Assembly (NCBI GenBank): GCA_963700145.1
Contig: OY969474.1
Location: 2,112,001 to 2,176,000, forward strand
Length of the DNA: 64,000 bases
Reading direction: 5' to 3'
Source: an uncultured Acidobacteriota bacterium
GTDB taxonomy: Bacteria > Acidobacteriota > Thermoanaerobaculia > Multivoradales > UBA5704
Below the pieces are notes generated by a model. That model ran no database searches. It was not told where the DNA came from and worked only from the letters and a program-made list of their open reading frames with translations. This document shows positions 19,550 to 60,597 of the stretch, piece after piece (position 1 is the stretch's first letter; each line of letters begins with the position of its first letter). Both the position numbers and the translations under genes were made by a program.

Positions 19550-19737
19550 CCGGGACCGTCGCCTGCGGCAGGCGACGGTCGTTTGCGGCAGATGACCGTC
19601 GTTTACTCTAGACGACCGTCGTGTGTAGTAGACTACCGTCGCTCAGTACAGATGATAGTCGTCTGGAGTAAACTACCGTCGTTTAGGCCAAACGACGGTC
19701 GCCCGGCTCAAACGACCGTCGTCCGGAGCAGACGACC
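19550..19737. repeat. 20-bp-period palindromic tandem array A (9.5 units; ARACGAC-N-GTCGTYT + 5-nt spacer)
   Basis: Units start at 19550, 19570 ... 19730 with no indels; the last half-unit runs into the ATG at 19738. Confidence 0.92.
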
Positions 19738-20130
19738 ATGACCATGCGCGGAATCAACTCCTTGGCCGACAAGCTCAAGCTCTGGCAGCAGCTCCGCGCC
19801 GGCACCGGCCGCCTTCTCGACGACCTCCCCCACCTGCGCCCGGAGGTCACGACGTTCGAGACGGAGCTGCGGGACCTCGTGGCGATCGACGAGGAGCACG
19901 CCGCGACGACCGCCCGCCTGCGCGAGCTGACCCGCCGCCGCGCCGAGGCCCAGGTCCGCGTTCGTGGCCTGCGAAACCGCATCGCCGCGACGCTCCAAGG
20001 CCACTACGGCCCAGAGAGCGACACCCTGATCGAATACGGTATAGCCCCCCGCCGCCGCCGCCCGCGCCGCAAACCGGAGCCGGAGACCCCCACTATCTCC
20101 GAAGTACCTACCGAGCCGGTCGAGGAGTAG
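19738..20130 (+). CDS. Uncharacterised ~130-aa helical/coiled-coil protein with Arg-rich tail (paralog A)
   Basis: Host-like codon usage; clear homology to 60205-60597 (SLAD.LK.W.QLR, PHLR, TARLRE, H[YF]GPES..LIE..I.PRRRR). Confidence 0.85.
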   Translation: MTMRGINSLADKLKLWQQLRAGTGRLLDDLPHLRPEVTTFETELRDLVAIDEEHAATTARLRELTRRRAEAQVRVRGLRNRIAATLQGHYGPESDTLIEYGIAPRRRRPRRKPEPETPTISEVPTEPVEE

Positions 20131-20208
20131 GCCTCTACCCACCCGAGTATCTAGGATATCTTCGACGCCTGAATTGGATATCCGGCCCCTGCCGGAAGGA
20201 GCGCGGCG

Positions 20209-20424
20209 ATGAGCGTGCGCAAAACCAGCGTCGAGATCAACGAGGACCTCCTGCAGGAGGCCCAACGGGTGCTTTCGACGACGACCATCAAGGACACTAT
20301 CGAGGAAGCCCTCCGCGAGGTCCTGCGCGTGGAAGCTCGGCGTGAGGAGATCGAAGCGCTCTCGGCGATGCGCGGAATGGACCTCGCCGATCCGGAGGTG
20401 ATGTCCGGGGCCTGGCGCCCGTGA
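20209..20424 (+). CDS. VapB-type antitoxin
   Basis: KTSVEINEDLL...TTIKDTIEEALRE RHH-like; overlaps the PIN gene. Confidence 0.85.
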   Translation: MSVRKTSVEINEDLLQEAQRVLSTTTIKDTIEEALREVLRVEARREEIEALSAMRGMDLADPEVMSGAWRP

Positions 20425-20834
20425 GGGCGCGGTACCTCGTAGACAAGAGCGCGCTGGCGCGGATGCCGCTCGAGCCGGTGCGCGAGGTGCTGGCGCCGAT
20501 CATCGACGCCGGCGAGGCCGCCACCTGCGCCATCATCGATTTGGAAGTTCTCTTCAGTGCCAGGAACCGCGAGGACCACGATCGCATCCGCGAGCGCCGC
20601 GCCCTCGCCTACCACTCGGTGCCGATTACCGAGGAGATTTTCCAGCGAGCGATCGCGATCCAGTCCGCGCTCGCCCGCAGCGGCCGCCACCGGGTGCCGA
20701 TCCCGGACCTGATCATCGCCGCCACCGCGGAAGCCGCCGAGCTGGTGTTACTGCACTACGACCACGACTATGACGTTATCGCCGAGGTAACCGGGCAGCG
20801 CGCGGAGTGGGTCGTCGAGCGCGGCGTGCTCTAG
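20421..20834 (+). CDS. VapC PIN-domain toxin
   Basis: YLVDKSA, LEV, DLIIAATAE, HYDHDY. Confidence 0.9.
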   Translation: MRARYLVDKSALARMPLEPVREVLAPIIDAGEAATCAIIDLEVLFSARNREDHDRIRERRALAYHSVPITEEIFQRAIAIQSALARSGRHRVPIPDLIIAATAEAAELVLLHYDHDYDVIAEVTGQRAEWVVERGVL

Positions 20835-20847
20835 CGCCGGCCTTGCT

Positions 20848-21063
20848 TCACCGCTCGATCTCCAAGTCCGCCGAGTGCGGCTGCTCCGGCTCGCGCTGGA
20901 TGAGGACCGTGGCGGCGATCGGGAAGAAGGCGCGGTGGAGGCGCTCGCCGAACTGGCAGTTGACTTCGTAGTAGCCGTCGCCGCTGACCTGGAGCAGGGT
21001 CGCCCTGCCTCCCTTGATCCCCAGCAGCTCGTTATGGATCAGCACCTCGGCCGGTAGCTCCAT
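20848..21063 (-). CDS. Small hypothetical protein
   Basis: 71-aa ORF with GGAG RBS directly after the NtrC-family gene; host codon usage. Confidence 0.7.
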   Translation of the reverse strand: MELPAEVLIHNELLGIKGGRATLLQVSGDGYYEVNCQFGERLHRAFFPIAATVLIQREPEQPHSADLEIER

Positions 21064-21072
21064 CGCACTCTC

Positions 21073-22461
21073 CTAATCCGTGTAAAAACCCGCGTCCTTG
21101 TACTCCTTGAGCTTCCGCTGCAGGGTACGCAGGCCGATCCCCAAGAGGTCGGCGGCCTTGGCGCGGTGGCCGGCGGTGCGGGCGAGGGTCTCGAGGATCG
21201 CCTGGCGCTCGATCTCCTCCATCGTGCGCGTGCCGCCGACCGCCGACTGTACCCGCCCGCCCGCCGCCGAGACGGTGGCCGCGTCGCGCACCTCGGCGGG
21301 CAGGTCCACCGGCTCCACCACGTCCCCCTGGTGGAAGACGACCACCGACTCGATCACGTTCTTGAGCTGGCGCACGTTGCCCGGCCAGGGGAAGCGGGCG
21401 AGAAGCTCCAGCGCCTCGGGGGCGAGGCGCTTGGGGGGCTTCCCGTGCTCCTCGGTGAAGAGCGCCAGGAAGTGCTCGGCCAGGAGCGGCACGTCCTCCG
21501 GCCGCTCGCGCAGCGGCGGGATGCGCAGCGTCACCACCTTGAGCCGGTAGTAGAGGTCCTCGCGGAACTTCCCCTCCGCCACCACCCGCTCGAGGTCGCG
21601 GTTGGTGGCGGCGAGGAGGCGAAAGTCGACCGGGATCACCTCGCCACCGCCGACGCGCATGATCTGCCGCTCCTCGAGGACGCGCAGGAGCTTGACCTGG
21701 AGCTCGGGGTAGAGCTCGCTGATCTCGTCGAGGAAGAGGGTGCCGCGGTGGGCGAGCTCGAACTTGCCGATCTTGCGCGCGATGGCGCCGGTGAAGGAGC
21801 CGCGCTCGTGGCCGAAGAGCTCGCTCTCCAGGATGTCCGGGGGGATGGCGCCGCAGTTGATGGCCAAGAAGCGCTCGTTGCGCCGCGGGCTGGCGCGGTG
21901 GATCGCCGCCGCGACCAGTTCCTTGCCGGTGCCGCTCTCGCCGACGACCAGCACCGTCGACCGCGTCGGGGCGACGAGCTGCATCTGCTCGAAGAGGCGC
22001 TCCATCGGCGCCGAGTGGCCGATGATGCTCTCGAAACCGTAGCGCTTGTCGAGCTGCTGGCGCAGGCTGGTGACCTCCTCGCGCAGCTGCTGCTTCTCGA
22101 TCAGGTTCATCACCCGCTGCCGCAGCTCGTAGAGGTCGACCGGCTTGGTCAGGTAGTCGTCGGCGCCGACGCGCATCGCCTCGACCGCCGACTCGATCGA
22201 GCCGTAGCCGGTCACCAGGACGACCGCCAGCTCGTCGCCGCGCTCGCGCACTTCCTGGAGGAAAGCGAGGCCGTCCGTGCCCGGCATCCGCAGGTCGCAG
22301 ACCGCCAGCCGCGCGCCTTCGTTCTCCGCCAGGTAGTCGAGCGCCTTGCGCGCGTCGTCGAAGGTGCGCACCGCGAGCCCCGCCTTCTCGAGGGCGATCG
22401 CCATCGACTCGCGCGAGCCGCTCTCGTCGTCGATGACGAGAACGAGGGGTTTCTCGGCCAT
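21073..22461 (-). CDS. Sigma-54-dependent (NtrC-family) response regulator
   Basis: REC domain (IDD, DLRMP, KP), GESGTGKE, GSFTGA, FLDEI, WPGNVRQL, Fis-type HTH. Confidence 0.95.
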   Translation of the reverse strand: MAEKPLVLVIDDESGSRESMAIALEKAGLAVRTFDDARKALDYLAENEGARLAVCDLRMPGTDGLAFLQEVRERGDELAVVLVTGYGSIESAVEAMRVGADDYLTKPVDLYELRQRVMNLIEKQQLREEVTSLRQQLDKRYGFESIIGHSAPMERLFEQMQLVAPTRSTVLVVGESGTGKELVAAAIHRASPRRNERFLAINCGAIPPDILESELFGHERGSFTGAIARKIGKFELAHRGTLFLDEISELYPELQVKLLRVLEERQIMRVGGGEVIPVDFRLLAATNRDLERVVAEGKFREDLYYRLKVVTLRIPPLRERPEDVPLLAEHFLALFTEEHGKPPKRLAPEALELLARFPWPGNVRQLKNVIESVVVFHQGDVVEPVDLPAEVRDAATVSAAGGRVQSAVGGTRTMEEIERQAILETLARTAGHRAKAADLLGIGLRTLQRKLKEYKDAGFYTD

Positions 22462-22495
22462 GCCGAGCCATTTTGGCACAAGGAGAGGGGAAGGC

Positions 22496-23746
22496 TCAGC
22501 CCGGGTAGCGGACGACCATGACCGTGCGGTCGTCTTCCTGCGGCGTCTCGCCGTCGAACTCCTGGACGCTCCGGAAGATGGCGTCGACGATCGCCTCGGC
22601 GGACTCGGCGCGCCGCTCGGTGGCGACGCGCAAGAGGCGCGCGACGCCGAACTCCTCCATCTTGCCGTCCTCGCCCCGGCCGCGCGCCTCGACGATGCCG
22701 TCGGTGTAGAAGACCAGCGTGTCCCCGGGCTTCATGATGACGAAGCCGCGCTCGTAGCTGGCGTGGGCGAGCGGCCCGAGCACCGGGCCCCCCTCCTCGA
22801 GGAAGCGCACGGCGCCGTCGCGCGCCAGGTGGAACGGCGGCGGGTGGCCGGCGTTGACGTAGATGAAGACGCCGTTCGGCTCCAGCTCGCCGTAGAACAT
22901 CGAGACGAAGCGGCTGGTCAGGGTGCTCTGGTGGATGATCTTGTTCATCCGCTCGACGGTGCGCACGATCTTGAAGTCGCGCGCCAGCCCCATCCGCAGC
23001 CCCATGTAGACGTCGCGCACCTGCAGCGCCGCCGGCAGGCCGTGCCCCGAGACGTCGGCGATGGTCAGGCCCAGGATCTTCTCGGTCACCGGGATGTAGT
23101 CGTAGTAGTCGCCCCCCACCTCCTCCATCGACTCCGAGCGGCCGCAGAGGTCGAAGTCGCCGTACTCCGGCACCCGCCGCGGCAGGATCGAGGCCTGGAT
23201 CTTCCGCGCCTCCTCGAAGATCCCCTGCATGCGGTCGCGGCGAATCTTCTGGTTGATCGAGTGGCGGAGGATGCCGAGCGAGAACAGGACGTCGTCGGGG
23301 TGGTGGCCGGGGCGGACGTCGAAGGCGAGGATGTACTCCTCGTCGCCGACTTCGATGGCGGCGAAGTCGCCGGCGCCGAGCTGCTCCTCGAGGCTGCGGT
23401 CGACGTGCGGGTCGTCGGGGCCCATGTAGACGGCGCCCTGCTCGAGGAGGAGCTTGATCGGCCGGTAGCTGACCGGGATCTTGAGTCCCGCCGGCACCTC
23501 CTTGGCGTCGCCGAAGGTGCCCTGCAGCACGTAGGAGCGGCCGCTCCGCCGGTAGAGCCGCCCGCCGTAGATCCCCAGCTCGTCGCGGAATTTCTGGACG
23601 ATCGTGGCGACGATCGACTGGATGGTCGCACCGGTGTCCTCGCCGCGGTCCATGACCGCGACCACCTGCTCGACCTTCTTCATCAGCCCCCGATAGTCGA
23701 CCGGGGGGGCGTCGGTGGTAATCAAATGCGCTCTCCTGGCGTTCAA
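22496..23746 (-). CDS. PP2C/SpoIIE (RsbU-like) phosphatase with N-terminal GAF-like region; start uncertain
   Basis: VGGDYYD, ADVSGHG, NAGHPPP, YTDGIVEA, DDRT. Confidence 0.9.
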   Translation of the reverse strand: MNARRAHLITTDAPPVDYRGLMKKVEQVVAVMDRGEDTGATIQSIVATIVQKFRDELGIYGGRLYRRSGRSYVLQGTFGDAKEVPAGLKIPVSYRPIKLLLEQGAVYMGPDDPHVDRSLEEQLGAGDFAAIEVGDEEYILAFDVRPGHHPDDVLFSLGILRHSINQKIRRDRMQGIFEEARKIQASILPRRVPEYGDFDLCGRSESMEEVGGDYYDYIPVTEKILGLTIADVSGHGLPAALQVRDVYMGLRMGLARDFKIVRTVERMNKIIHQSTLTSRFVSMFYGELEPNGVFIYVNAGHPPPFHLARDGAVRFLEEGGPVLGPLAHASYERGFVIMKPGDTLVFYTDGIVEARGRGEDGKMEEFGVARLLRVATERRAESAEAIVDAIFRSVQEFDGETPQEDDRTVMVVRYPG

Positions 23747-23777
23747 GGATAGCGGAGGGAGCCCTGGTGTAGCATCA

Positions 23778-23997
23778 GTGCAACCAGCGGAAACAGAAAC
23801 AGGGGCCGCGAAGGCGGCGAAGACCTACCGCCAGGGAGCCAAGCTCCGCCAGAAGGGAGAAGACCACCGACGCGGCGGAGCGCGAGGCGCTCTACAAGCA
23901 CGAGGCGCTCAAGGCCTGCAGCATGGCCAAGGCCCTGAAGCCGCGCAACGAGAAGGCCAAGAAGTGCTTCACCGACGCCGGGGGCGTGGAGGGCTAA
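23778..23997 (+). pseudogene. Frameshifted small ORF remnant
   Basis: Coding-like codons AAKTYRQGAKLRQK, then a shift to EKTTDAAEREALYKHEALKACSMAKALKPRNEKAKKCFTDAGGVEG*. Confidence 0.4.
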
Positions 23998-24099
23998 CCG
24001 CCGTAGCGGCCCGTCCGCCGATTCGGGCGGCCGGTTCGCCGATCCGATCTCTCCTCGGCCGCTGGCGTGGGGTACCAATGCGGCGAGGAGGAGACCGAG

Positions 24100-25296
24100 A
24101 TGAAACGAACCCGAGTCTGGCTGTGCGCGGCGGTCTTGCTGGTGGGCTGGACGATCACGCTGCCGGGAGCCGCGCGGGGGGACGGCGCGCTCCTGATCGA
24201 CGACTTCGAGGACCGCGACCTGGAGGCGGCGCCGGGCGTGTCGTGGATCGTCATCGGCGACGAGCTGATGGGCGGCGAGAGCACCGGCCGGCTCGAGATC
24301 GTCGCCGGCGGCGGCAGCCGCGGCGCGCTCGCCTTCGCCGGCGAGCTGGTGCCGGGCGCGCGCGGCGCCTTCACCGGCGCCTGGACGGCGATCGGGGCGG
24401 CGGGGGCGCCGCGCGACCTCACCGGGTACACCGGCCTGCGCTTCCGGACGCGCGGCACTCCCGGCCGCTACACGGCCGGCGTGCGCGGCGCGGGCAGTCT
24501 GGGCAACTTCATGGCACCGTTCGAGGTCGGCGCCGAGTGGCGGGAGGTCGAGCTGCCGTTCGCCGACCTGCGGCCCCTGCCGCCGCCGCCGCAGGAGGTC
24601 GCGTGGAGTGCCGCCGCCCTCGCCTGGATCGGCGTCTCGGCGGCCGCCGCGCCGGGCGCCCCGAGCGGCTTCCGGATCGAGCTTGACGACGTCGCCTTCG
24701 TGCCGGCCGCGGTGCCCACCCCCATGGTCGCGAAGACCGCGCTCGCGGACGCCGGGCCGCTCGCGGCCCTCGCCTGGCGCCCGCTGGTCTCCGATCCGGC
24801 CGGCGACGGCACCGCGCCGCGCCTGCCCGACGCGGCGGCGCTCGCCTGGGCGGCCGACGCCGAGGGCCGGGTGTGGTTCCGCCTCGGCCTCCACGGCCCG
24901 CCGCCGGAGAAGTGGCTGGGCCTCAACGTGGCCCTCGACGTGGACGGCGATCCCACGAACGGCACCGCCTGGTGGGGCGCCAACAAGGCCTTCCACTTCG
25001 ATCGGCTGGTCACCGCCTACCTCTGGCCCGGCGCCGGCTACTGGCAGGGCATGCTGGGCGTGGCGGACGCCGAGGCCGTCGGGCGCATGGTCATGGACGA
25101 CGTCAGCCGGGACGTGCGGGTGGCGGTCGACCGCGACGGGCAGGCCCTCTTGGTGGGCGTGCCGGCCGCCGCCCTCGCCGGCGGCCGCACGACGCGGCTG
25201 ATCGCCACCGTCGGCTCGCCGATGACCTGGAACGACGACCTGCCGGACAGCGGCGCGGCCGAAGCGGATCTGCCGGCCGGCCCCGGCGGCCGCTGA
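24100..25296 (+). CDS. Secreted protein with CIA30/carbohydrate-binding-like domain
   Basis: Signal peptide; LIDDFED, DELMGGES, DLTGYTGLRFR, WREVELPFADL. Confidence 0.7.
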   Translation: MKRTRVWLCAAVLLVGWTITLPGAARGDGALLIDDFEDRDLEAAPGVSWIVIGDELMGGESTGRLEIVAGGGSRGALAFAGELVPGARGAFTGAWTAIGAAGAPRDLTGYTGLRFRTRGTPGRYTAGVRGAGSLGNFMAPFEVGAEWREVELPFADLRPLPPPPQEVAWSAAALAWIGVSAAAAPGAPSGFRIELDDVAFVPAAVPTPMVAKTALADAGPLAALAWRPLVSDPAGDGTAPRLPDAAALAWAADAEGRVWFRLGLHGPPPEKWLGLNVALDVDGDPTNGTAWWGANKAFHFDRLVTAYLWPGAGYWQGMLGVADAEAVGRMVMDDVSRDVRVAVDRDGQALLVGVPAAALAGGRTTRLIATVGSPMTWNDDLPDSGAAEADLPAGPGGR

Positions 25297-25347
25297 CGGC
25301 AAGCGGCGCGGCCGCCGGCGGATCGGCGGGATATCGTCGCCACGACG

Positions 25348-26517
25348 ATGGAGCGGCCCGCCGGCGGCCCGACCCCGCGCCTGGATCAGAGCCCGGCGCG
25401 AAAGCACCTTGCCTGGCTCTATCCCCTGGCCTGGCTGCCGTACCTGGCGCTCTACTGCGTGGCGCTGGGCTACGGCCTGGCGCTCGATCCCGCCCTCGCC
25501 CTCCTCGCCGCCGCCGCCAACGTGCTGCCGCCGGCCCTGCTCGGGGTGGCGGTCCTGCGGCTCTGCGCGCGGCTGCCGTGGGACCCGCGCCCGAGGCGCG
25601 AAGGCTTTCGCGCCGGGCTCGGTCGGCGGCGCTTCTTCGCCGTCCACGCCGGGCTCGCCCTCCTCTACGCCGGCCTCTCGGTGGCCGGCACGTGGGGCCT
25701 CTTCCAGATCGCCGACCGGGTGCGCAAGGGCACTTGGTCGGGCGGTTCCTACGACGTGCGGGTGGCCGCCTGGCAGTTCTTCATCGGCCTCCTCCTCTAC
25801 GCGCTCCTCGCCAGCCTGGCCTACGCCGCCGCGCTGGTCGTCCGCCTGCGCGACGAGGAGGCGCGGCTGGCGCGGCTCGCCGAGCTCCAGACCCGCGCCG
25901 AGCTCAAGGCGCTGCGCGCCCGGCTCGACCCGCACTTCCTGTTCAATACGCTGCACAGCCTGCTCGCCCTGGTGCGCCGCGACCCGCGCGCCGCCGAGGA
26001 GGCGCTGGAGCGCTTCGGCAGTCTCCTGCACTACGTGCTGCGCGGGCAGGAGGAGGGCGAGGAGGTCCGCCTGGTGGAGGAGTGGAGCTTCGTGCGCGAC
26101 TACCTGGAGATCGAGGCCCTGCGGCTGGGCGAGCGGCTGCGTGTCGAGGCGGCGGTCGACGCCGACGCCGGCGCCTGCCTGGTGCCGGCCTTCACGCTCC
26201 AGCCGCTGGTCGAGAACGCGATCCGCCACGGCATCGCCACCCGCGCCGGCGGCGGGCGCCTCTCGGTGCGCGCTTCGGTCGCCGGCGGGCTCCTGCACGT
26301 CGAGGTGGCCGACGACGGCCCCGGCGCCGAGCCGGACGAGGTGAGCGACGGCGGCCACGGCCTCGCCCTGGTCCGCGACCGCCTGCGCGCCGCCCACGGG
26401 GCGCGCGGCGAGCTGGCGGTGGAGACCGCGCCGGGGGCGGGCTTCGTCGTGCGGCTGCGGCTGCCGGCCGTGCCGTCTACGGCACTGGAGCTACCGGCGC
26501 CGGAGGCCGAGGCGTGA
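25348..26517 (+). CDS. LytS/YehU-type sensor histidine kinase
   Basis: TM helices, DPHFLFNTL, LQPLVENAIRHG, DDGPG. Confidence 0.92.
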   Translation: MERPAGGPTPRLDQSPARKHLAWLYPLAWLPYLALYCVALGYGLALDPALALLAAAANVLPPALLGVAVLRLCARLPWDPRPRREGFRAGLGRRRFFAVHAGLALLYAGLSVAGTWGLFQIADRVRKGTWSGGSYDVRVAAWQFFIGLLLYALLASLAYAAALVVRLRDEEARLARLAELQTRAELKALRARLDPHFLFNTLHSLLALVRRDPRAAEEALERFGSLLHYVLRGQEEGEEVRLVEEWSFVRDYLEIEALRLGERLRVEAAVDADAGACLVPAFTLQPLVENAIRHGIATRAGGGRLSVRASVAGGLLHVEVADDGPGAEPDEVSDGGHGLALVRDRLRAAHGARGELAVETAPGAGFVVRLRLPAVPSTALELPAPEAEA

Positions 26518-53539: not shown

Positions 53540-53555
53540 TGCAACCGACATGCCT
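53540..53555 (-). promoter_or_regulatory. Sigma-54 -24/-12 promoter for the baeRF-like gene
   Basis: AGGCATGTCGGTTGCA (GG-N10-GC). Confidence 0.55.
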
Positions 53556-53569
53556 CCTATAATCGTCGT

Positions 53570-54037
53570 ATGGCCACATCACCCCAGCAGCGCATCGAGT
53601 CCGACCTCAAGGAAGCGCTCAAGGCCGGGCAGAAGGAGCGGCTCTCGACCCTGCGTCTCCTGCTGACCGAGATCAAGAACGAGCGCATCCGCCGCGGCGG
53701 CGAGGTGGACGAGCCGGCCTTCGTCGCCCTCGTGCGCAAGGCGGTGAAGCAGCGGGAAGAGGCCGCGACGCAGTACCGCCAGGGGGCGCGCCCCGAGCTG
53801 GCCGAGAAGGAGGAGCGGGAGGCGGTCGTCCTCACCGCCTACCTGCCCGCCCAGGCCGACGAGGCGCAGATCCGTGCCGCGATCGAGGAGCTGGTGGCCG
53901 CCCGCGGCCTTGCCGGCCCCGCCGGCATCGGCCCGGTGATGAAGGAGATGCTCGCCCGCTTCGGCTCCGCCGCCGACGGCGCGACGATCAACCGCCTGGC
54001 GCGCGAGATCCTCACTCGGGCGAACTCTGGGACCTAA
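53570..54037 (+). CDS. GatB/YqeY domain protein
   Basis: DLKEALKA, KQREEA...Y, YLPAQ, GPVMK; TATAAT 6 nt before ATG. Confidence 0.92.
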   Translation: MATSPQQRIESDLKEALKAGQKERLSTLRLLLTEIKNERIRRGGEVDEPAFVALVRKAVKQREEAATQYRQGARPELAEKEEREAVVLTAYLPAQADEAQIRAAIEELVAARGLAGPAGIGPVMKEMLARFGSAADGATINRLAREILTRANSGT

Positions 54038-54069
54038 GGCGCGAAAGCTTTCGCGCCGTGTGAAATCAA

Positions 54070-55968
54070 TTGCGCCGCGTCGTCGTCGGCACCGCCGGCC
54101 ACATCGACCACGGCAAGACCCGCCTCGTCCAGGCCCTCACCGGCATCGACTGCGATCGCTGGGCCGAGGAGAAGGCCCGCGGCATCACCATCGACCTCGG
54201 CTTCGCCTACCTCTTCGACGGCGACCTGCAGGTCGGCTTCGTGGACGTCCCCGGCCACGAGCGCTTCCTGCACAACGCGCTGGCCGGCTTGGGCGGCATC
54301 CGCATCATGCTGCTCGTCGTCGCCGCCGACGAGGGGGTGAAGCCGCAGACCCGCGAGCACCTGGCGGTCTGCTCGCTCCTCGGCATCCCGGCGGGGCTCG
54401 TCGCCCTGACCAAGACCGACCTCGTCTCCGCCGACCTCCAGGAGCTGGCACAGCTCGAGGTCGAGGAGCTGCTGGCCGCAACCCCGTTCGCCGGCGCGCC
54501 GGTCTTGCCGGTGTCGAGCGAGACCGGCGCCGGGATCGCGGAGCTCAAGGCCGCGATCCTCGACCTCGCCGCCCGCCACGCCGCGCCGCACGACGCAGCG
54601 CTTCCCGCCCGCCTCCCGGTCGATCGCGCCTTCCACCTCAAAGGGCTCGGCGTCGTCGTCACCGGCACGCTGGCGAGCGGCGAGGTGCGGCCGGGGGACG
54701 CGCTGGAGCTGCTGCCGCGCGGCGAGCGGCTGCGGGTGCGGAGCGTCCAGGTGCACGGCCGGCCGCGCGAGGCGGCGGTGGCCGGGGAGCGCACCTCGCT
54801 CCAGCTCACCGGCGTGGAGCTCGACGCCCTGGCCCGCGGCATGACCCTCGCCGCCCTCGGCGCCTTCGCCGCCACCACCCGCCTCCTCGCCGACTTCCAT
54901 CTTCTGCCCGACGCGCCGGCGCCCTTGCACGGCTGGACGCCCGTACGCCTCCACCTCTACGCCAGCGAGGTGCTGGGGCGGCTGCGGCCGCTCGGGGCCG
55001 GCGGGATCGCGCCGGGCGGCAGCGGCCCGGTCGAGGTCCGCCTGGAGGCGCCGGTCGTGGCGGTGCGCGGCGACCGCTACGTCGTCCGCCGTCCCTCTCC
55101 CGCCGCCACTCTCGGCGGCGGTCGCGTGCTCGATCCCCGCTGGCGCCGCCACCGCGCGCGCGACCTGCCGGGAACTCTGGCCGCCCTCGCCGGCGACCTC
55201 CGCGCCGCGCTCCTCGCCTGGGGCGAGGAGGCGGGCGAGCGCGGGCTGGAGGCGGCGGAAGCGGCGCGGCGTCTCGGCGTGCCGGCGGAGCGGGCCGCGG
55301 CGGAGCTGGCCGCGCTTGCCGGCGCGCAGAAGCTCCTCGAGGTGCCGGAGGGGCCGGGGTACGCCCGCCGCTGGATCGCCCCCGCGGCGGTGCGCCGGGT
55401 CTCCGAGCGCGCCCGGCGGGTGCTCGCCGAGCACTTCCGGCGCGACCGCCTCGCCGAGGCGATGCCGCGGGCCGAGGCGGTGCGCCGCATCCTGCGCGGC
55501 GCCGCCGACCTCGCGCCGGTCTACCTCCCCTGGCTGGAGGCCGAGCGGGTGCTGGCGGTGCGCGGCGACCTCGTGACCCTCCCCGGCCGCACCGCCGAGC
55601 TGACCGGCGAGGAGTCGCGTCTGGCCGCCGCGGTGCAGGAGCGCTTCGACCGCGGCGGGCTCACCCCGCCCTCGCCCGCCGAGATGGCGCGCGAGCTGGG
55701 AGCCAAGCCGCAGATCGTCGACGGCGTCGTCCGCCACCTCGTCGAGCGCGCGCGCCTGGTCAAGCTCCCCGCCGGCCTGGTGCTCTCGGCCGCCGTGCTC
55801 GCCGAGCTGCGCGACCGCCTCCTCGCCAGCGACTGGGAGCGCTTCTCGGTGGCCGACTTCAAGGACCGCTTCGGCCTCTCGCGGAAATGGGCGATCCCGC
55901 TCCTCGAGCACCTCGACTCGACCGGCGCCACCCGGCGGGTCGGCGACGAGCGGCAGGTCGTGCGCTAG
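54070..55968 (+). CDS. selB: Selenocysteine-specific elongation factor
   Basis: [33 protein letters not shown]-terminal winged helix [15 protein letters not shown]. Confidence 0.96.
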
Positions 55969-56058
55969 CCCTTCGACCGTCCTCTCAGGAGGACGAGCGC
56001 GCCTCTCCGCCGCGCCGCCCGTTCCGTCCGAAGCCCTTTCGTTTCAGTCGCTTCGCGG

Positions 56059-56074
56059 TGGCATATCGCTTGCT
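56059..56074 (+). promoter_or_regulatory. Sigma-54 -24/-12 promoter
   Basis: TGGCATATCGCTTGCT, ~32 nt upstream of ATG 56107. Confidence 0.65.
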
Positions 56075-56106
56075 CTCTATGGACCGCGAAGACAGGAGGA
56101 CCGACA

Positions 56107-56619
56107 ATGAGAACCGCGCTCCGAAAGACCCTGCTCGCCCTCGCCGCCGTCGCCATGCTGGTGCCGGCGACGGCCGACGCGCAGGTCCAGCGTCGCAACC
56201 GTGACCGTGCCTACGATCGCTACAACCAGCGCTACCAGGGCGACTGGGCGGCGGCCGAGCTCGAGAAGATGGCCCGCCAGGTCCACCGCCAGGCCCTCGA
56301 CTACCAGCGCGGCGGCGGCCGCGGCGAGCGCGAGGTGATCAACCGCCTGCGGGCCCTGGAGGAGGCCGCCCGCGCCTTCAACCGCAGCGGCGGCGACGAG
56401 CGGGCCTTCGAGCGGCTCGCCGACACCTACTTCGCGGCCGGCGACGCCCTCTCGCGCATCCGCTACCGCGCCCACGTCTACGGCGGTTTCAACCGGATCG
56501 ACCAGCTCATGGACGAGATGTTCAACCGCTACGGCTACCGCGACCGGCGCTTCAGCAACGATCGCCTCCGTGACCAGGATCGCTTCCGCGACCGGCCGCG
56601 CGACCGCTGGCGCTACTAG
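56107..56619 (+). CDS. Secreted hypothetical protein, Arg/Asp/Tyr-rich termini
   Basis: AGGAGG RBS; signal peptide ending ADA; host codon usage. Confidence 0.8.
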   Translation: MRTALRKTLLALAAVAMLVPATADAQVQRRNRDRAYDRYNQRYQGDWAAAELEKMARQVHRQALDYQRGGGRGEREVINRLRALEEAARAFNRSGGDERAFERLADTYFAAGDALSRIRYRAHVYGGFNRIDQLMDEMFNRYGYRDRRFSNDRLRDQDRFRDRPRDRWRY

Positions 56620-56712
56620 CGGTCTGGAGAGCGCTCCGTCTTGCAGCGGCTCAGCGTTGGGGGCGCTGCAGCCGCCCAGCGCTCGCCCGGCCTTACTGCA
56701 TTGACTTCGATA

Positions 56713-56750
56713 CCCCCTCCCTGGCCCTCCCCCGCTGCGCGGGGGAGGGA
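56713..56750. repeat. REP-like hairpin (family of 17444-17482)
   Basis: CCCCCTCCCTGG-CCCTCCCCCGC-TGC-GCGGGGGAGGGA. Confidence 0.7.
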
Positions 56751-56782
56751 GCTTCGTCTCTCCGGCTAAACTACCCGCTCAC

Positions 56783-57166
56783 ATGAGCTCCTCTCGCACC
56801 ATCGCGGTGCTCGGCGCCTCCGGCAACCGGCGGAAGTACGGCAACAAGTCGGTGCGCGCCTACCAGGCCGCGGGCTACAAGGTCTACCCGGTCAACCCGC
56901 ACGAGACCGAGGTCGAGGGGCTGCCCGCGCTGGCGCGGCTCGCCGACGTGCCGGAGCCGCTGGAGCGGATCAGCGTCTACCTCCAGCCGGAGGTCACGCT
57001 CCAGGTGCTGCCGGAGATCGAGGCGGCCGGCGCGCGCGAGGTCTGGTTCAACCCCGGCTCGGCCGACGCCCAGGTCGTCGAGGAGGCCCGCCGGCTCGGC
57101 CTCCCCGTCCGCCACGGCTGCAGCATCGTGGACATCGGCTTCAGCCCGGCCCAGTTCCCCGCCTGA
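56783..57166 (+). CDS. CoA-binding protein (YccU-like)
   Basis: IAVLGAS, YPVNP, VWFNPG, GCS. Confidence 0.88.
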   Translation: MSSSRTIAVLGASGNRRKYGNKSVRAYQAAGYKVYPVNPHETEVEGLPALARLADVPEPLERISVYLQPEVTLQVLPEIEAAGAREVWFNPGSADAQVVEEARRLGLPVRHGCSIVDIGFSPAQFPA

Positions 57167-57310
57167 ATCTTCCGTATCGTTGTCCCCTTTTTTCCTCTTC
57201 AAGCAACTTAAGGAGGCAGAGGAGGGTCCGCCACGGCGACCGATCTGTTCTCCCGAATCCAGGCTCACCTCGTCGTCCTCGCCGAGGAGCGGGAGGCGGC
57301 ATGCGGGCAC

Positions 57311-57847
57311 TTGGCCGACCTCCTCGCCCTGCCGGCGGCGCAGCGCGAGGGCGCCACCCGCGTCCGCCCCGCCTGGCAGACGTTCGGCCTCGCCGAGCTG
57401 CTGGTCGAGCGGAGCGCCGAGGCGGCGCCGCGCGCGGCGCTCGAGCTGGCGCGCCTCGCCGTGGCGGTCGCCGCCTGCCTCGAGCCGGCGCGCTACACCG
57501 CTTCCCTGGTGTGCGACCTGCGGGCCCGCGCCTGGGCGCAGCTAGCCGAGGCGCGGCGGCTCGACGGCGACCTCGCCGGCGCCGCCAAGGCGCTGGACGT
57601 CGCCGAGGAGCTGTGCGAAGAGGGGTCGGCGGACCCGCTGTTGGAGGCCCACCTCCTGGAGCGGCGCGCAGCGCTCCGCGCCGGCCGGGGGGACGCCGAG
57701 GACGCGGCCGCGATGCTGGAGCGGGCGGCGAAGATCTACGAGAGCGTGGCCGACGCGCCGCGCGCGGTCAGCGCCCGGCTCGCAGCCTCCGCGCTGGGCG
57801 CCTCCGAGCTGGGCGCGCCGCCTCGCGCCGCCCGGGCCGCGGGCTAG
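57311..57847 (+). CDS. TPR-like helical hypothetical protein; true start probably upstream
   Basis: DLRARAWAQLAEARRL.GD..GA; frame is open back to 57212. Confidence 0.65.
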   Translation: MADLLALPAAQREGATRVRPAWQTFGLAELLVERSAEAAPRAALELARLAVAVAACLEPARYTASLVCDLRARAWAQLAEARRLDGDLAGAAKALDVAEELCEEGSADPLLEAHLLERRAALRAGRGDAEDAAAMLERAAKIYESVADAPRAVSARLAASALGASELGAPPRAARAAG

Positions 57848-58833
57848 CGCGCGGCGCGCAGCGTCGCGGCGCGGCCGAGCCAGCGACCCGCCCGCCGCAG
57901 CGGCAGCGGCAGGCACCGCGCTCCTCTTCCCTCGACGCGCGCCGGGATGGTCTCGAAGAGCAGCTCCGCCCACTGCGGCAGGATCGCCGCCGCCGTGTAG
58001 TCGGCGGCGCGGGCGCGACCGTTCTCGACCATCGCGGCGTAGAGCCCGGGCTCGGCGAGCAGGCGCTCGACCGCCCGCTCCGCCTCCGCGCGCGTGCCGG
58101 CCTCCAGGTAATCGAGGGGCGAGCGGCGGAGCTCGCGGTAGGCGACCTCCGGCCCGAGCAGCGCCGGCACCCCGGCCAGCCAGGCGTTGACCAGCTTGCT
58201 CGCCGGTTTCCAGCGCCAGAGCGTGCGCTGCGGCGGGCGCACCGCGACGATCAGGTCGAGGTCCCGGTGGTCGGGCCAGTCGAGCGGCAGCCTGTCGGTG
58301 GCCGCCCGGGGGAACTCGACCGAGTCCACCACCCACTCGATGCCGCACGCGGCCAGGAAGTCGCGCCAGGCCGGGGCGCGGAGGTCGAGGTGGAGGTTGG
58401 CGTCGAAGCCCTTGTAGGCGGCGCGCTCGAGGCGGCTGCCGCGCGCCGGGTCGCGCGGCACGAGCGCCGGCTGCGGCCAGTGCGGCAGGTGGAAGCGGCG
58501 GCGGCCGTCGGCGAACCAGCCGTTCTGGAGGATCTCGAAGTCGGCGGCGAGCGGCTCGCGGTTGTCGGCGCGAACGCCGACCAGGACCGCGTCGCCGAGC
58601 GCGCCCCCGGCGGCGCAGAGCGCCCGCTCGTGCTTGGCGTGGAAGACGACGAGCCCGCCCGCCGGCGGGGTGCCGGCGAGCTTGACCGGCCAGCCGGCGC
58701 GGGCGAGGCGCAGGTAGGCCTGGAGCACCCAGATCCGCTCGCCGCGCTGGAACTCCCGCCATTCGCGGTCGGGGTCGATCCCCGCCAGGCGCTCGAGGTC
58801 CGGCTCGCCGGCGAGGAAGAAAGTGACCTCCAC
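57844..58833 (-). CDS. Putative glycosyltransferase (GT-B-like)
   Basis: WVLQAYLRL, HWPQPAL, KPASKLVNAWLAGVPALLG. Confidence 0.65.
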   Translation of the reverse strand: MEVTFFLAGEPDLERLAGIDPDREWREFQRGERIWVLQAYLRLARAGWPVKLAGTPPAGGLVVFHAKHERALCAAGGALGDAVLVGVRADNREPLAADFEILQNGWFADGRRRFHLPHWPQPALVPRDPARGSRLERAAYKGFDANLHLDLRAPAWRDFLAACGIEWVVDSVEFPRAATDRLPLDWPDHRDLDLIVAVRPPQRTLWRWKPASKLVNAWLAGVPALLGPEVAYRELRRSPLDYLEAGTRAEAERAVERLLAEPGLYAAMVENGRARAADYTAAAILPQWAELLFETIPARVEGRGARCLPLPLRRAGRWLGRAATLRAAR

Positions 58834-58886
58834 GGGCGCGCCAGCCTAGCAGCGCGCGCCCGCCGGACCGCGACATAATCGCCGCC

Positions 58887-59297
58887 ATGTCCGTCGAGAT
58901 CACCGGCCGCTACGTCGGCCACCTGAAAGTGGAGCTGACGCACGAGCCCTCCGGTACCGTGCTCACCACGGCCGCGCCCAAGGACAACCAGGGGGACGGC
59001 AGCTCCTTCTCCCCCACCGACCTCCTCGCCACCTCCCTCGGCGCCTGCATGATGACGCTGATCGCCATCGTCGGCACGCGCGAGGGAGTGGACCTCGACG
59101 GCCTCCGCTTCCGCCTGGAGAAGCACATGAAGAGCGACCCGCGGCGCGTGGGCTCGGTGCCGGTGACGATCTGGATGCCGGCGGGCCTCACCCCGGACCA
59201 GCGGCGGAAGCTCGAGAACGCCGCCCTCACCTGCCCGGTCCACAAGAGCCTGCCGCCCGAGCTCGAGCGGGAGGTGCGGTTCGTCTACCCGGACTGA
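58887..59297 (+). CDS. OsmC family protein
   Basis: FSPTDLLATSLGAC, CPVHKSL. Confidence 0.92.
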   Translation: MSVEITGRYVGHLKVELTHEPSGTVLTTAAPKDNQGDGSSFSPTDLLATSLGACMMTLIAIVGTREGVDLDGLRFRLEKHMKSDPRRVGSVPVTIWMPAGLTPDQRRKLENAALTCPVHKSLPPELEREVRFVYPD

Positions 59298-59722
59298 GCC
59301 GGGTCCAGCGTCTGTAGGAGGCGCTGGGCCTCTTCCGGGGTGAACACCCCGTCGTCCTTGCACTTCCAGATCATCATGCGCAGGGTCGCGCGCTGGAGAA
59401 CGCCGACGGCCGTCGCGGCAGGATCGCCTTCCGGCGGCGCCTCGGGAGCGGCGGACGTTGGAGGGGGCGTGGATGGGCCGAGCGCCCCTTGGAAGAAGTC
59501 GCCGGGCGGCAGATCGATGGCCCGCAGCACGGCGAGGACGTGCGCCACCTTGAGCTGCACCGAGCCGCGCAGCACCTGGCGTAGGTAGTCCTGCCCGATC
59601 TGGGCGCCCTTCTCGACATCGCGGTAGCTCTTTCCCGACTCGCGGATCCTCTCCTTCAGCGCCTCCAAGATCCTCCGGGTCTCCGGGTCCGTGGTGCCCA
59701 AATAAGCTGTCTTGTCCCGCAC
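59285..59722 (-). CDS. XRE/Cro-like HTH protein
   Basis: KSYRDVEK...IGQDYLRQVLRGSVQLKV; divergent from array B. Confidence 0.75.
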   Translation of the reverse strand: MRDKTAYLGTTDPETRRILEALKERIRESGKSYRDVEKGAQIGQDYLRQVLRGSVQLKVAHVLAVLRAIDLPPGDFFQGALGPSTPPPTSAAPEAPPEGDPAATAVGVLQRATLRMMIWKCKDDGVFTPEEAQRLLQTLDPAQSG

Positions 59723-59737
59723 GGCGGAGAGCCTATC

Positions 59738-59813
59738 TCAACGGCTTGACGGAGGGTTGTCAACGGTTCTTGGCTTATAACCGTTGACTTCACTCCGCTA
59801 GGCATCGTAAGAT
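59738..59813. promoter_or_regulatory. Operator-like inverted repeat overlapping a sigma-70 promoter
   Basis: GTCAACGGTT-N10-AACCGTTGAC (59759-59788), extra half-site TCAACGG at 59738; TTGACT-N18-TAAGAT (59784-59813). Confidence 0.65.
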
Positions 59814-59895
59814 GCTCCATGCCGTTCATTTCTCTCCATCCGCTGGAAGCTCGGCCCGGCACCGTTGCGGGCGCTCGCTTTCCATTCCGGACGCT

Positions 59896-60118
59896 CCGGT
59901 ACCGTGCCGGCCGCGCCGTTACGGTGACGGCGCGCCCGTTACGGAGATGGTCGTCCCGTTACCGTAACGGAGCGGCAGTCACGGTAACGGCGCGCCCGTT
60001 ATCGAGACGGGGCGCCCGTTATGGAGATGGAGCGCCCGTTACGGTAACGAGGCGCCCGTCATGGAGACGGAGCTTCCGTCACCGTAACGGAGCGCCCGTC
60101 ATCGTGACGGAGCTTCCG
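59896..60118. repeat. 20-bp-period palindromic tandem array B (11 units; CCGTYAY-N-GWRACGG + 5-nt spacer)
   Basis: Units start at 59896, 59916 ... 60096 with no indels. Confidence 0.92.
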
Positions 60119-60204
60119 GCGGCGATCCGGGGCCCTCCGACCCGCCGTGGCGCCACGCGCGGCGACTTCATCCCCCCTGAACAGCTCAAGAAAGGAGGCA
60201 CATC

Positions 60205-60597
60205 ATGCCCGACGTTCCGATTCCCCGTTCCCTCGCGGACCGGCTCAAGAAGTGGGAGCAGCTCCGCGACAAGATCCCGACCGTCCTCGAGCAGACGCCG
60301 CACCTGCGCGAGGAGCACGCCAACTTCGACCAGGCGCTCAAGCAGCTCGTCCTCTTCGAGCACGAGCAGGAAGCCGCGACCGCCCGTCTGCGGGAGGCCA
60401 CGCGCCTGCGCGACGAGCAGGACAACCGTGTCCGCCTGCTCAACAACCGCCTGGTCGCCGGCCTCCAGGCCCACTTCGGCCCCGAGAGCGAGCGCCTGAT
60501 CGAGTTCGCGATCCCGCCCCGGCGGCGGCGCCGCCGCCGCAAGAGCGAGCTCCTCAAGGCCCCGACCGGCGTGAAGGCCCAGGAGCCGGCCAACTAG
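60205..60597 (+). CDS. Uncharacterised ~130-aa helical/coiled-coil protein with Arg-rich tail (paralog B)
   Basis: AAGGAGG RBS; homolog of 19738-20130. Confidence 0.88.
   Translation: MPDVPIPRSLADRLKKWEQLRDKIPTVLEQTPHLREEHANFDQALKQLVLFEHEQEAATARLREATRLRDEQDNRVRLLNNRLVAGLQAHFGPESERLIEFAIPPRRRRRRRKSELLKAPTGVKAQEPAN

Follow-up and report, generated by a model that had tools for sequence, protein, structure and literature searches.

Phased palindromic arrays linked to genes of a small helical protein family in Acidobacteriota: a candidate two-part DNA-level element

Two paralogous genes in the window (the whole 64,000-nt stretch of DNA analysed here, from an uncultured Acidobacteriota bacterium) each lie downstream of an array of short palindromic units repeated every 20 bp, and an array with a 20- or 21-bp period was found upstream of all 16 genes of this uncharacterised helical protein family, here given the working name A1, in the genome. 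This pairing of array and gene seems to be previously undescribed, in line with a sequence-only reading of the window which had not recognised it as a known system: A1 matched no described protein family and no RNA family was matched either, while the searches with ORF A, one of the two window proteins, gave no Pfam, NCBIfam, PHROGs or PADLOC family. We read array and gene as a two-part element that may act at the level of DNA. Our leading interpretation, to which we give a probability of about 45%, is that A1 dimers assemble into chains on the phased sites, that these chains repress the A1 gene concerned, and that orphan arrays belonging to the same sequence class are occupied as well.

The two window proteins are both 130 residues long and encoded on the forward strand, ORF A (module M01) at 19738-20130 and ORF B (module M02) at 60205-60597. 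Their paralogy had been proposed with these coordinates and a hand count of 58/105 identities, and BLASTP gave 51/97 identities (53%) without gaps (E 3e-32). The H[YF]GPES..LIE[YF] motif is indeed present in both, followed by a run of 5-7 arginines, but the Arg-rich tail described earlier is typical of the ORF A/B clade alone, other paralogs having a Pro/Lys/Glu-rich tail instead. The ribosome-binding site of ORF A (GGAG, 19725..19728, forward strand) lies within the spacer of the last full array unit, 9 nt before the ATG, and that of ORF B (AGGAGG, 60193..60198, forward strand) 6 nt before the ATG.

Array A (19550..19737) begins 9 nt past the stop codon of glmM and extends to the start codon of ORF A. 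It was found as first described, with 9.5 units of an imperfect 7-1-7 palindrome (consensus core AGACGAC-N-GTCGTCT) and a 5-nt variable spacer; read by eye, the units begin every 20 bp from 19550 to 19730, with 20-bp spacing in 9/9 intervals, and Tandem Repeats Finder reported 19554-19737 with a period of 20 (and 40) and 0% indels. Array B (59896..60135) comprises ten well-formed 20-bp units (59916-60115), flanked on either side by a degenerate one, and was reported by the same program at 59916-60113 (period 20, 9.9 copies, 2% indels, score 156). Its 20-bp period was thus as claimed, but its palindromes are not uniform, since CCGTYAC-N-GTRACGG cores and weaker CCGTYAYGGAGAYGG units take turns, which results in a super-period of 40 bp. 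A sigma-70-like promoter (TTGACT, 18 nt, TAAGAT; 59784..59813, forward strand) reads into array B, the consensus promoter scan before this array having returned one site where 0.1 were expected in shuffles.

Arrays of this kind are numerous in the genome. When the whole genome was scanned for stretches of 126 nt that match themselves at 68% or more under a given shift, 13 places were found at period 20 and 72 at period 21, as against 3, 0, 1, 0 and 1 at periods 18, 19, 22, 23 and 24, and the 20/21-bp arrays are not due to chance. The genome total is about 106 arrays, some six per A1 gene, most of them orphans beside unrelated genes (about 90 lie away from A1 genes). Intervals within arrays are 20 or 21 bp nearly without exception; the 20-bp period is limited to the ORF A/B clade and one other locus, and all other clades have 21 bp. 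The arrays fall into 22 multi-member sequence classes, and an A1-linked array is present in 10 of the 11 classes having at least three members (P = 0.0008, random draws). One gene per class is no rule, as three A1 genes share the same array class in another genome.

Array and gene form a co-occurring module, as had been proposed. Beyond the 16/16 genes of this genome, upstream arrays were found at 61/64 homolog loci of the same genus and at 17/38 in other genera, against a background of 2.2% of 3000 random 560-nt windows scoring as array-bearing. Homologs lacking an array number 3/64 inside the genus and 21/38 outside it; at the ORF A ortholog of one relative the array is reduced to a single unit, which could reflect assembly collapse. 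A1 is restricted to one taxonomic family of Acidobacteriota, soil bacteria, with 4-50 copies per genome, and the arrays share this taxonomic range. Four further genomes were sampled, with counts given as matches by period, one place possibly scoring at a period and at its double. Two had no A1 match, and in these no array was seen in 336 kb of a member of the same family and no real array in 400 kb of a member of another family. Two members of the same family, with 7 and 50 A1 matches, gave in 400 kb each, respectively, one match at period 21 with 3, 1 and 1 at periods 40, 41 and 42, and five at period 21 with seven at period 42.

The structure prediction and Foldseek comparison suggested earlier were carried out with ORF B. 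The model is entirely helical, a helical hairpin with a 60-residue helix (mean pLDDT 87.6); Foldseek and VIA-align returned only generic helical matches with no recognisable DNA-binding domain, and a PDB profile search with A1 gave coiled-coil noise only. Homodimer prediction gave an ipSAE of 0.70 (0.71, 0.70 and 0.70 in three runs; best of three controls 0.00), a mark reached by 20/30 proteins solved as one-chain pairs and by 1/23 solved as single chains. At least 96% of contacts agreed between runs, the partner pLDDT was 86, and contacts 62:62, 58:58, 76:44 and 83:41 describe an antiparallel arrangement. A1 is therefore predicted to be an antiparallel coiled-coil dimer. As regards specificity, 115 non-independent protein pairs (55-85% identity, 16 sharing an array class) were compared, and a shared class was best predicted by identity in residues 1-31 (AUC 0.74), with the coiled coil at 0.43 and the C-terminal motif at 0.65; specificity might thus reside in residues 1-31. 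The L006, L011, L013 and L021 proteins are 74-80% identical and have the unrelated cores GGTATC..GATACC, GGATGTATCC, GGAACCTGTTCC and GGAATCGATCCC, so that any base-specific readout would have to rest on very few residues, which counts against a simple sequence readout. The leading interpretation is further weakened by the similar core, GAAGCTTC, of the distant proteins L009 and L010, by the homologs lacking an array and by the excess of arrays over A1 genes.

From a mechanistic point of view, the array may be regarded as a series of 7 to 20 short palindromic putative protein-binding sites which, with a spacing of 20 or 21 bp (exactly two helical turns), all lie on one face of the duplex. We infer that A1 may bind these sites as a dimeric rod of about 9 nm, each end of which would combine the variable N-terminal helix of one subunit with the conserved G-x-[YF]-G...L-x-E-F-G-x-x-P motif of the other and the basic tail of that same other subunit. 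If a rod end contacts a palindrome half-site, the dimer would bridge the spacer between adjacent cores, and neighbouring dimers would abut head to head on each core, forming a cooperative chain along the array. As the gene's own array lies between promoter and start codon, such a chain would act as a roadblock setting the A1 level (autoregulation). Orphan arrays of the same sequence class, dispersed over the genome, might be occupied by this protein too; they are gained, lost and resized in the manner of a satellite repeat.

The divergence of orthologous arrays (eight pairs, out of 12 examined) bears on whether the repeats act as DNA at all. Palindrome cores differed at 98/1199 positions (8.2%) and spacers at 199/884 (22.5%), a 2.7-fold slower divergence of the cores, while the four-fold sites of A1 genes differed at 30/242 (12.4%); gapped positions were absent in 7/8 pairs. 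The cores are under sequence constraint. Of the two mechanisms offered by the sequence-only reading, phased DNA sites therefore fit better, because the slower divergence of the cores relative to the spacers, the fixed spacing and the missing G·U signature all point to DNA sites and not to RNA hairpins or peptide repeats. The other mechanism, in which the basic tail of A1 would bind a 200-300-nt hairpin leader or process it into units of 20-21 nt, as in type III toxin-antitoxin repeat RNAs or arginine-rich peptides on RNA hairpins, may draw on the arginine runs of both window proteins and on the position of promoters. A promoter-like motif was indeed found before the linked array at 13/53 loci, in trailers at 0/53 and in array bodies at 1/53 (random 0.46%); recognisable promoters lying upstream of the array and never between array and gene, linked arrays are probably transcribed. 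We nevertheless consider a function as RNA very unlikely. Sense-strand mismatches showed no excess of G·T (G·U in RNA) over A·C (227 vs 194, p = 0.12), 22% of the 4080 palindrome pairs are unpaired, and the core sequence itself is conserved beyond pairing. In addition, most paralogs are without the Arg-rich tail, a promoter-like motif reads into 1/92 orphans, whose orientation is random, no Rfam family was matched at threshold, and neither a ToxN-like nor another nuclease family was found. It is hardly credible, finally, that the arrays encode heptad repeats translated in fusion with A1, or that they represent a degenerate CRISPR-like array. The earlier argument that a period of 20, not being a multiple of 3, speaks against a peptide repeat stands for the 20-bp arrays, which cannot stay in frame, but fails for the commoner 21-bp arrays, as 21 bp make seven codons, and an open frame extends upstream in 9/16 A1 genes (233-384 aa). 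Nevertheless, the three frames through 58 arrays are about equally free of stops (42, 41 and 43), GC is flat across codon positions, without a rise at the third, and each gene starts at the conserved N-terminus behind a ribosome-binding site of its own. As to CRISPR, the units were rightly judged too short (20-21 bp in total, of which merely 5-9 bases are variable), and the absence of cas genes was borne out among the ORFs around both window loci (glmM, vapBC, HTH gene, OsmC, GIY-YIG, polA), the sole PADLOC match for 16 proteins being a stray Csm3 (1/16, E 0.006).

Two further explanations accept DNA repeats and separate them from A1. In one, a satellite-like repeat, selfish or neutral, makes up the arrays; it is spread and resized by recombination or replication slippage and merely persists in A1 leaders or was carried along in A1 island duplication; A1 would then be non-binding, with an unrelated function, for example as partner of a DCoH-like protein. 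Several properties of the orphans are in keeping with this. The array that separates a gene stop from the rpsF promoter counts 15 units in this genome and about 5 in a relative, and two further relatives are without it, their flanks being 11 and 33 nt apart; orphans of one class have only the repeat units in common, with unrelated flanks; neither strand bias (29 co-oriented vs 30 anti-oriented) nor promoter-region bias (43/20/19 in tandem/convergent/divergent intergenic regions) was seen in their even spread over the genome. IS3-type elements lie at the ends of two arrays, some orphans are what is left of decayed modules, still with the ribosome-binding site or about the first 18 A1 codons, and array-less A1 subfamilies exist. 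A mere satellite is, however, unlikely, given the slow divergence of the cores with their spacing kept, the array at every A1 gene of this genome, the A1-linked array in nearly all larger classes, the absence of arrays from the sampled DNA of the two A1-less genomes, and the lack of any target-site duplication or element end at the arrays examined. In the other explanation, the phased sites serve another factor, either a DCoH-like protein or an unlinked regulator, and A1 is its regulated product or a bridging or stabilising accessory. The genes around the modules are relevant here. The vapBC and GIY-YIG neighbours, which had been pointed out earlier, turned out to be incidental, and the genes that do recur near modules encode a DCoH-like protein and an Xre-type HTH protein. 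Five of the six Pterin_4a-like matches in the genome, one of them scoring below Pfam's cut-off, are separated from an A1 gene by 0.4-0.7 kb and mostly adjoin the array on its upstream side; truncated copies were recognised by eye ahead of the array at four more modules, and a DCoH-like gene lies directly upstream of two array-less homologs in other genera (by eye). The saddle-shaped sheet of a DCoH-like protein could face nucleic acid, and A1 is without a known DNA-binding fold. Even so, another reader appears distinctly unlikely: the ORF lists show no DCoH-like gene at M01 or M02, a separate reader would be needed for each class, and only the A1 gene is found beside all 16 arrays. The Xre-type HTH gene at array B (59285..59722, reverse strand), divergent from the array B promoter, has HTH_3/HTH_31 matches below the Pfam cut-off, and its paralogs lie beside at least five other modules, M03, M06, M09, M11 and M13, the M13 copy scoring above it. 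The M03 and M06 copies are one residue apart in 60 compared, yet their arrays differ, and from these sequences the Xre-type protein probably regulates the divergent promoter rather than reading the array.

With A1 dimers on phased DNA sites as the preferred interpretation, comparison with known systems showed that the element fits none of CRISPR, type III toxin-antitoxin, ParR/parC, iteron/Rep and REP/RAYT. CRISPR repeats are about 23-50 bp long and separated by unique spacers of similar length. Type III toxin-antitoxin systems (ToxIN) have the same order of promoter, tandem repeat array and protein gene, but with repeats of about 36 nt and a ToxN/AbiQ-type endoribonuclease; the A1 repeats are of 20-21 nt, without an RNA-structure signature and with about 90 arrays lacking an adjacent gene, and no Pfam, NCBIfam or PADLOC family of such a nuclease and no nuclease fold in the A1 model were found. 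In type II partition, the gene for the small dimeric ParR lies downstream of the parC repeats (20-bp tandem repeats in pSK41), and parC is both operator and assembly site, which ParR is thought to coat cooperatively. A1 resembles it in having a gene for a small, predicted dimeric protein just 3' of an indel-free array of ~20-bp repeats, but differs in having no ParM/ParA NTPase neighbour: none of the ORFs listed within 4 kb to either side of the 16 modules was an actin-like or Walker-type partition NTPase, Pfam searches covering selected neighbours. The A1 dimer is, moreover, predicted to be an antiparallel coiled coil lacking the N-terminal ribbon seen in ribbon-helix-helix proteins, its antiparallel long helices placing the N-termini at opposite ends; no ribbon-helix-helix family appeared in Pfam or PDB profile searches, although a fold of this kind may escape such predictions. 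The 16-50 A1 copies and about 100 arrays per chromosome also differ from ParR-parC, and tblastn of ORF B against plasmid and phage collections gave no match.

Iterons of theta plasmids with their Rep proteins, and the palindromic iterons of lambdoid phage origins, are 17-22-bp sites phased by two helical turns beside the gene of their binder, and related iteron systems differ in site sequence while keeping the same geometry. The A1 arrays are likewise 20-21-bp repeats phased by about two helical turns beside a protein gene, but are dispersed along the chromosome, and A1 (about 125-130 aa, all helical) has no Rep winged-helix domain according to Pfam and NCBIfam. DCoH serves as dimerisation cofactor of the transcription factor HNF1, to whose helical dimerisation domain it binds; the likeness here is one of gene adjacency, a Pterin_4a/DCoH-like gene adjoining that of the helical, predicted dimer-former A1 at five modules (Pfam) and four with truncated copies, but at neither window module. 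Two papers (PMC3337134, PMC2817692) describe REP/BIME sequences and RAYT genes as dispersed intergenic palindromes in regularly spaced clusters, of several classes each tied to an adjacent gene, and REPIN-RAYT systems as lineage-restricted and vertically inherited, with paired inverted REPs of 20-40 bp. The A1 arrays are similarly dispersed, intergenic, palindromic, multi-class, gene-linked, lineage-restricted and vertically inherited. By contrast, A1 has no catalytic domain, and the genome (completeness 95%) gave no match to the Y1 (HUH) transposase family PF01797, which was matched in 6/14 control genomes; the A1 units, moreover, are of 20-21 bp and follow one another head to tail in long arrays with strict helical phasing.

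ORF A (19738-20130) and ORF B (60205-60597), which encode proteins of 130 aa each, are paralogs, as the sequence-only reading had proposed, with 51 identities over 97 ungapped positions (E 3e-32). Array A (19550-19737) comprises 9.5 units of exactly 20 bp; it starts 9 nt past the stop codon of a phosphoglucosamine-mutase-like gene, which we take to be glmM from reading its translation, and its last base adjoins the ATG of ORF A, whose ribosome-binding site sits within the final spacer. In array B, ten good 20-bp units (59916-60115) are flanked by one degenerate unit on either side. The impression that both arrays are free of indels was largely borne out by Tandem Repeats Finder (0-2% indels). 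A sigma-70-like promoter (59784-59813) lies about 80 nt 5' of array B when the degenerate first unit, at 59896, is counted, with an Xre-type HTH gene divergent from it, and a scan of the stretch between array B and ORF B found no promoter. Just 3' of ORF A there is a vapBC pair (20209-20834; VapB of 71 aa and PIN-domain VapC of 137 aa) with coding regions overlapping by 4 nt. Downstream of ORF B come a stand-alone GIY-YIG domain protein of 92 aa (60797-61075) and, beyond it on the minus strand, an 879-aa ORF (61199-63838), presumably like DNA polymerase I to judge from its translation.

Array and gene form a real and recurrent module, restricted to one lineage. The window's genome (5.46 Mb, one contig, 71.5% GC) encodes 16 paralogs of this helical protein family, hereafter A1, at 24-48% identity to ORF A, and all 16 have an upstream array, with a period of 20 bp in two cases and of 21 bp in 14, the 21-bp arrays often showing a 42-bp super-period of alternating units. 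The palindromic core differs from array to array (e.g. CCGGAAGCTTCCGG, GAGATCTATCTC, GGATGTATCC, GGTATC..GATACC, GTACGCATGTAC). In a set of 102 homolog loci from 24 genomes (16 from this genome and 86 from 23 relatives), arrays lie upstream at 61 of 64 same-genus loci, against 2.2% of 3000 random windows, which upholds the earlier proposal of a co-occurring module; the share is 17 of 38 in other genera, and homologs without an array belong mostly to one subfamily, about 150 aa long, from a few genera.

As regards taxonomic range, 22 of the 24 further genomes examined from the same family have A1 matches (4-50 per genome) and the 16 genomes taken from the order's other families have none, while a wider sample of the phylum gave matches in two of 300 other genomes, one a member of the same family and the other weak and broken by stop codons. 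The source names among the A1 matches listed are all "hypothetical protein", one homolog being assigned to a "Thermoanaerobaculia bacterium", and metagenome relatives form 1451 clusters at 50% identity, nearly all of 110-165 aa among the best 150. Arrays track the presence of A1 in DNA sampled from four other genomes and from the window's own (336-400 kb each; hits are counted per period, so one place can score at a period and at its double). Neither genome without A1 matches yielded real arrays (336 kb of one in the same family, with none at all; 400 kb of one in another family), and the remaining samples, of 400 kb each, gave one array at period 21 and three, one and one at periods 40, 41 and 42 in a same-family genome with 7 matches, five at period 21 and seven at period 42 in a same-family genome with 50, and four at each of these two periods in the window's genome with its 16. 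The 40-41-bp arrays of the genome with 7 matches have longer palindromes. In genome G006 (loci L065, L066 and L073), from a genus whose A1 homologs are without upstream arrays, there are still dispersed arrays, with a 40-41-bp period and longer palindromes of the form GAGGAAGA...TCTTCCTC.

Within the window's genome, a scan for 126-nt stretches of at least 68% self-identity at a given shift found 13 places at period 20 and 72 at period 21, compared with 0-3 at each of the control periods 18, 19, 22, 23 and 24. Merging periods 20, 21, 40 and 42 gave 106 places, a few of them coding or simple repeats, and arrays make up about 0.5% of the genome. Fourteen of these places are A1-linked arrays, two more linked arrays being too degenerate for the threshold, and about 92 are orphans, beside unrelated genes. 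The arrays fall into 22 multi-member sequence classes, and 10 of the 11 classes with at least three members include an A1-linked array (P = 0.0008 for random draws). One gene per class was rejected as a strict rule, same-class pairs being not rarer than chance (P = 0.29) and one relative having three genes of one array class. Orphans within a class have only repeat units in common, with unrelated flanks; in another class leader, array and trailer are common to the orphans and one of them retains about 18 first A1 codons, so that some orphans are decayed modules. One orphan, 49 nt 5' of an unrelated gene, copies an entire linked array at 92% identity. Three orphans of this contig, A005 (257826-258130), A056 (2593336-2593664) and A058 (2660818-2661095), each consist of two inverted sub-arrays of the same unit and are thus large imperfect palindromes. 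The same IS3-family element (98% identity over 421 nt) abuts the end of two orphans of different classes, at about 2945954-2946172 (A062) and 5033266-5033496 (A097), so arrays may be preferred insertion targets. The periodicity scan also caught a G-rich stretch of about 160 nt (2348034-2348197), almost pure G on the plus strand.

The orphans turn over between relatives. Orphan A010 (654812-655133), flanked by the stop of one gene and by the rpsF promoter, was compared with loci L190, L192 and L193 of relatives: it has 15 units here versus about 5 in one relative and is absent from two other species of the genus, where the same flanks are joined by 11 and 33 nt, with no visible target-site duplication at the site. 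Two further orphans are located at synteny breaks. Orphans are evenly spread over the genome and occupy tandem, convergent and divergent intergenic regions in 43, 20 and 19 cases, to be set against genome-wide shares of 65%, 17% and 18%, all rough counts since the crude gene finder called only 2843 genes. Replication-terminus or orientation-dependent sites were dropped as a candidate for want of strand bias (29 vs 30), a count made unreliable by a GC-skew curve that failed to place origin or terminus and hence to assign replichores.

The A1 protein itself is modelled with a mean pLDDT of 87.6 as a coil (residues 1-9), a helix (10-28), a 60-residue helix (32-91) and a short helix (96-101), followed by a disordered basic or Pro-rich tail. 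Conservation is seen at a Trp of helix 1, at A-R-L-R-E halfway along the long helix and at the end motif G-x-[YF]-G...S..L.E-F-G..P. Searches of Pfam, NCBIfam, PHROGs and PADLOC returned only coiled-coil noise, a PDB profile search coiled coils only, VIA-align wide only generic helical rows (Z <= 6.5), Foldseek against PDB no match at E <= 0.001, the ESM Atlas only unnamed Acidobacteriota clusters, and tblastn no match in the phage and plasmid collections. Structure prediction supports a homodimer, with an ipSAE of 0.70 (best of three controls, 0.00). Among solved structures, 20 of 30 homo-pairs and 1 of 23 single chains reach the mark used, and at least 96% of contacts recur between runs (pLDDT 86). 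Predicted contacts (62:62, 58:58, 76:44, 83:41) place the long helices antiparallel, so that at either end of the rod one chain's variable N-terminal helix would come together with its partner's conserved C-terminal motif and tail.

The leading reading, at a probability of about 0.45, is that the arrays are phased DNA sites and that the coiled-coil A1 protein encoded next to them reads them. When orthologous arrays are compared, 8.2% of positions differ in the twelve best-conserved phases of the unit and 22.5% in its remainder, with 12.4% at four-fold sites of the gene in the same comparison (8 of 12 pairs, four being left out for low protein identity or many gaps). Seven of the eight pairs have no gapped position, and almost all intervals within arrays measure 20 or 21 bp. 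A core that is conserved, a spacer that varies freely and a constant two-turn spacing are together what one would expect of protein-binding sites lined up along the same face of the DNA. The linkage, class pairing and shared range of A1 and arrays count for reading by A1. The 20-bp period occurs only in the clade to which both window proteins belong and at one other locus, many 21-bp cores have an outer GG[AG]...[CT]CC frame around a variable centre, and a shared array class was best predicted by identity in residues 1-31 (AUC 0.74, against 0.43 for the coiled coil, over 115 non-independent protein pairs of 55-85% identity). Counting against it are four paralogs that are 74-80% identical with unrelated cores, a GAAGCTTC core common to two distant paralogs, and the lack of an array at about half of the homologs outside the genus. 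A further point against it is a relative's ORF A ortholog (locus L140, about 95% identical protein), with one unit versus 9.5 at the same glmM-A1 junction, which could be a natural array deletion or a short-read assembly collapse.

Other accounts of the arrays were weighed. That they code for a peptide was already doubted from their period, and this reading is rejected, since the three frames through the 21-bp arrays lack stops in 42, 41 and 43 of 58 cases and their GC is flat over codon positions (0.64-0.69); CRISPR arrays have nothing in common with them and the unit lengths misfit, so that a coding or CRISPR-like nature is barely credible. Linked arrays are probably transcribed, promoter-like motifs lying 29-129 nt 5' of the array in 13 of 53 loci (random rate 0.46%) and in none of the 53 trailers between array and gene; such a motif reads into 1 of 92 orphans. 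An RNA function is nonetheless improbable: the sense strand has no excess of G·T over A·C (227 vs 194, p = 0.12), and 889 of 4080 palindrome pairs (22%) are non-complementary. Of the two mechanisms offered by the sequence-only reading, phased DNA sites thus fit better than the hairpin RNA. Rfam gave no family at threshold; its sub-threshold plant miRNA-precursor rows, on both strands, reflect the self-complementarity of the arrays.

A selfish satellite, whose copies would come and go as the orphans do, is an unlikely account, and even then the strict two-turn phasing and the core conservation would still want explanation. It is quite unlikely that the arrays are read by another factor, for which a DCoH-like protein is the example at hand. 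Five of six genome matches to Pterin_4a lie 0.4-0.7 kb from A1 genes outside the window (2032319-2032588, 332764-333030, 3395785-3396048, 3203498-3203758 and 4271223-4271360 of the same contig), directly 5' of the array or divergent from it, truncated copies (71 aa) precede four more arrays, and by eye such a gene is directly 5' of two array-less homologs in other genera. This clustering suggests that the DCoH-like gene is a third part of the module and its product a possible partner of A1, for which DCoH-HNF1 provides a comparison. What probability remains is left for explanations that we have not thought of.

From a mechanistic point of view, reading by A1 would take a particular form, which we infer from the modelled geometry. 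In the predicted dimer the heads lie too widely separated for both to occupy a single 12-14-bp palindrome, one on each half; the dimer would rather span the spacer and place each head on the nearer half of the core at that side, and two dimers would meet on every core in a head-to-head chain. Such an arrangement would account for the two dyads per period, the conserved core, the free spacer and the fixed period, and at its own gene a chain between promoter and start codon would block transcription, giving autoregulation. It is a doubtful further step that each paralog is the specific keeper of one array class, with chains that may bridge distant arrays of that class and 16-50 orthogonal "addresses" serving chromosome folding, silencing or insulation, new classes arising as array core and protein head diverge rapidly together. 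By analogy, this would be a new kind of protein-satellite partnership, with the logic of RAYT/REPIN and a non-enzymatic coiled-coil binder, an equally doubtful proposition.

The literature, at the level of listings and abstracts, gave no account of such arrays or of the A1 protein, in line with the earlier view that no described system was recognisable. ParR-parC of pSK41 and iteron-Rep resemble the A1 modules in array geometry and gene position, but against the first, the ORFs listed within 4 kb on each side of the 16 modules include no partition NTPase gene and the Pfam and PDB profile searches gave no ribbon-helix-helix signal, and against the second, no Rep initiator was found. Type III toxin-antitoxin systems such as ToxIN share the order of promoter, repeats and gene, whereas their unit length misfits, and the searches of the modules gave no nuclease family and no RNA-structure signature. 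REPIN-RAYT populations are described as repeat classes each tied to its own gene (PMC3337134, PMC2817692). REP/BIME with RAYT are alike in these dispersed, gene-tied classes, but identity was rejected since a search for the Y1 transposase (PF01797) found none in the window's genome (completeness 95%), with matches in 6 of 14 control genomes, and A1 is no enzyme. Should A1 read the arrays, it would represent an undescribed way of binding DNA, by an antiparallel coiled-coil rod whose heads are composite, and would offer dozens of orthogonal protein-site pairs as a natural library for studies of specificity evolution, perhaps usable as synthetic-biology parts. It would also be a second case, by a mechanism unrelated to REPIN-RAYT, in which a host gene present in single copy has a repeat population tied to it over long times, and would explain a conspicuous feature of these soil Acidobacteriota genomes.

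Genes for an Xre HTH, a TPR protein whose N-terminus is Cys-rich and several unnamed proteins are found repeatedly near some of the modules. The Xre HTH was rejected as the array reader: the copies at modules M03 and M06 differ by 1 residue in 60 printed, and those at M02 (ORF B) and M09 share the HTH-region DYLRQVLRGSV, while the arrays differ in both pairs. A repeated island surrounds modules M03, M06, M08, M11 and M13 (loci L003, L006, L008, L011 and L013). On its 3' side are four unnamed proteins (137, 315, 247 and 204 aa) without a Pfam match that reaches the cut-off, and on its 5' side the Xre HTH gene, the TPR protein with its Cys-rich N-terminus and a 260-aa protein.
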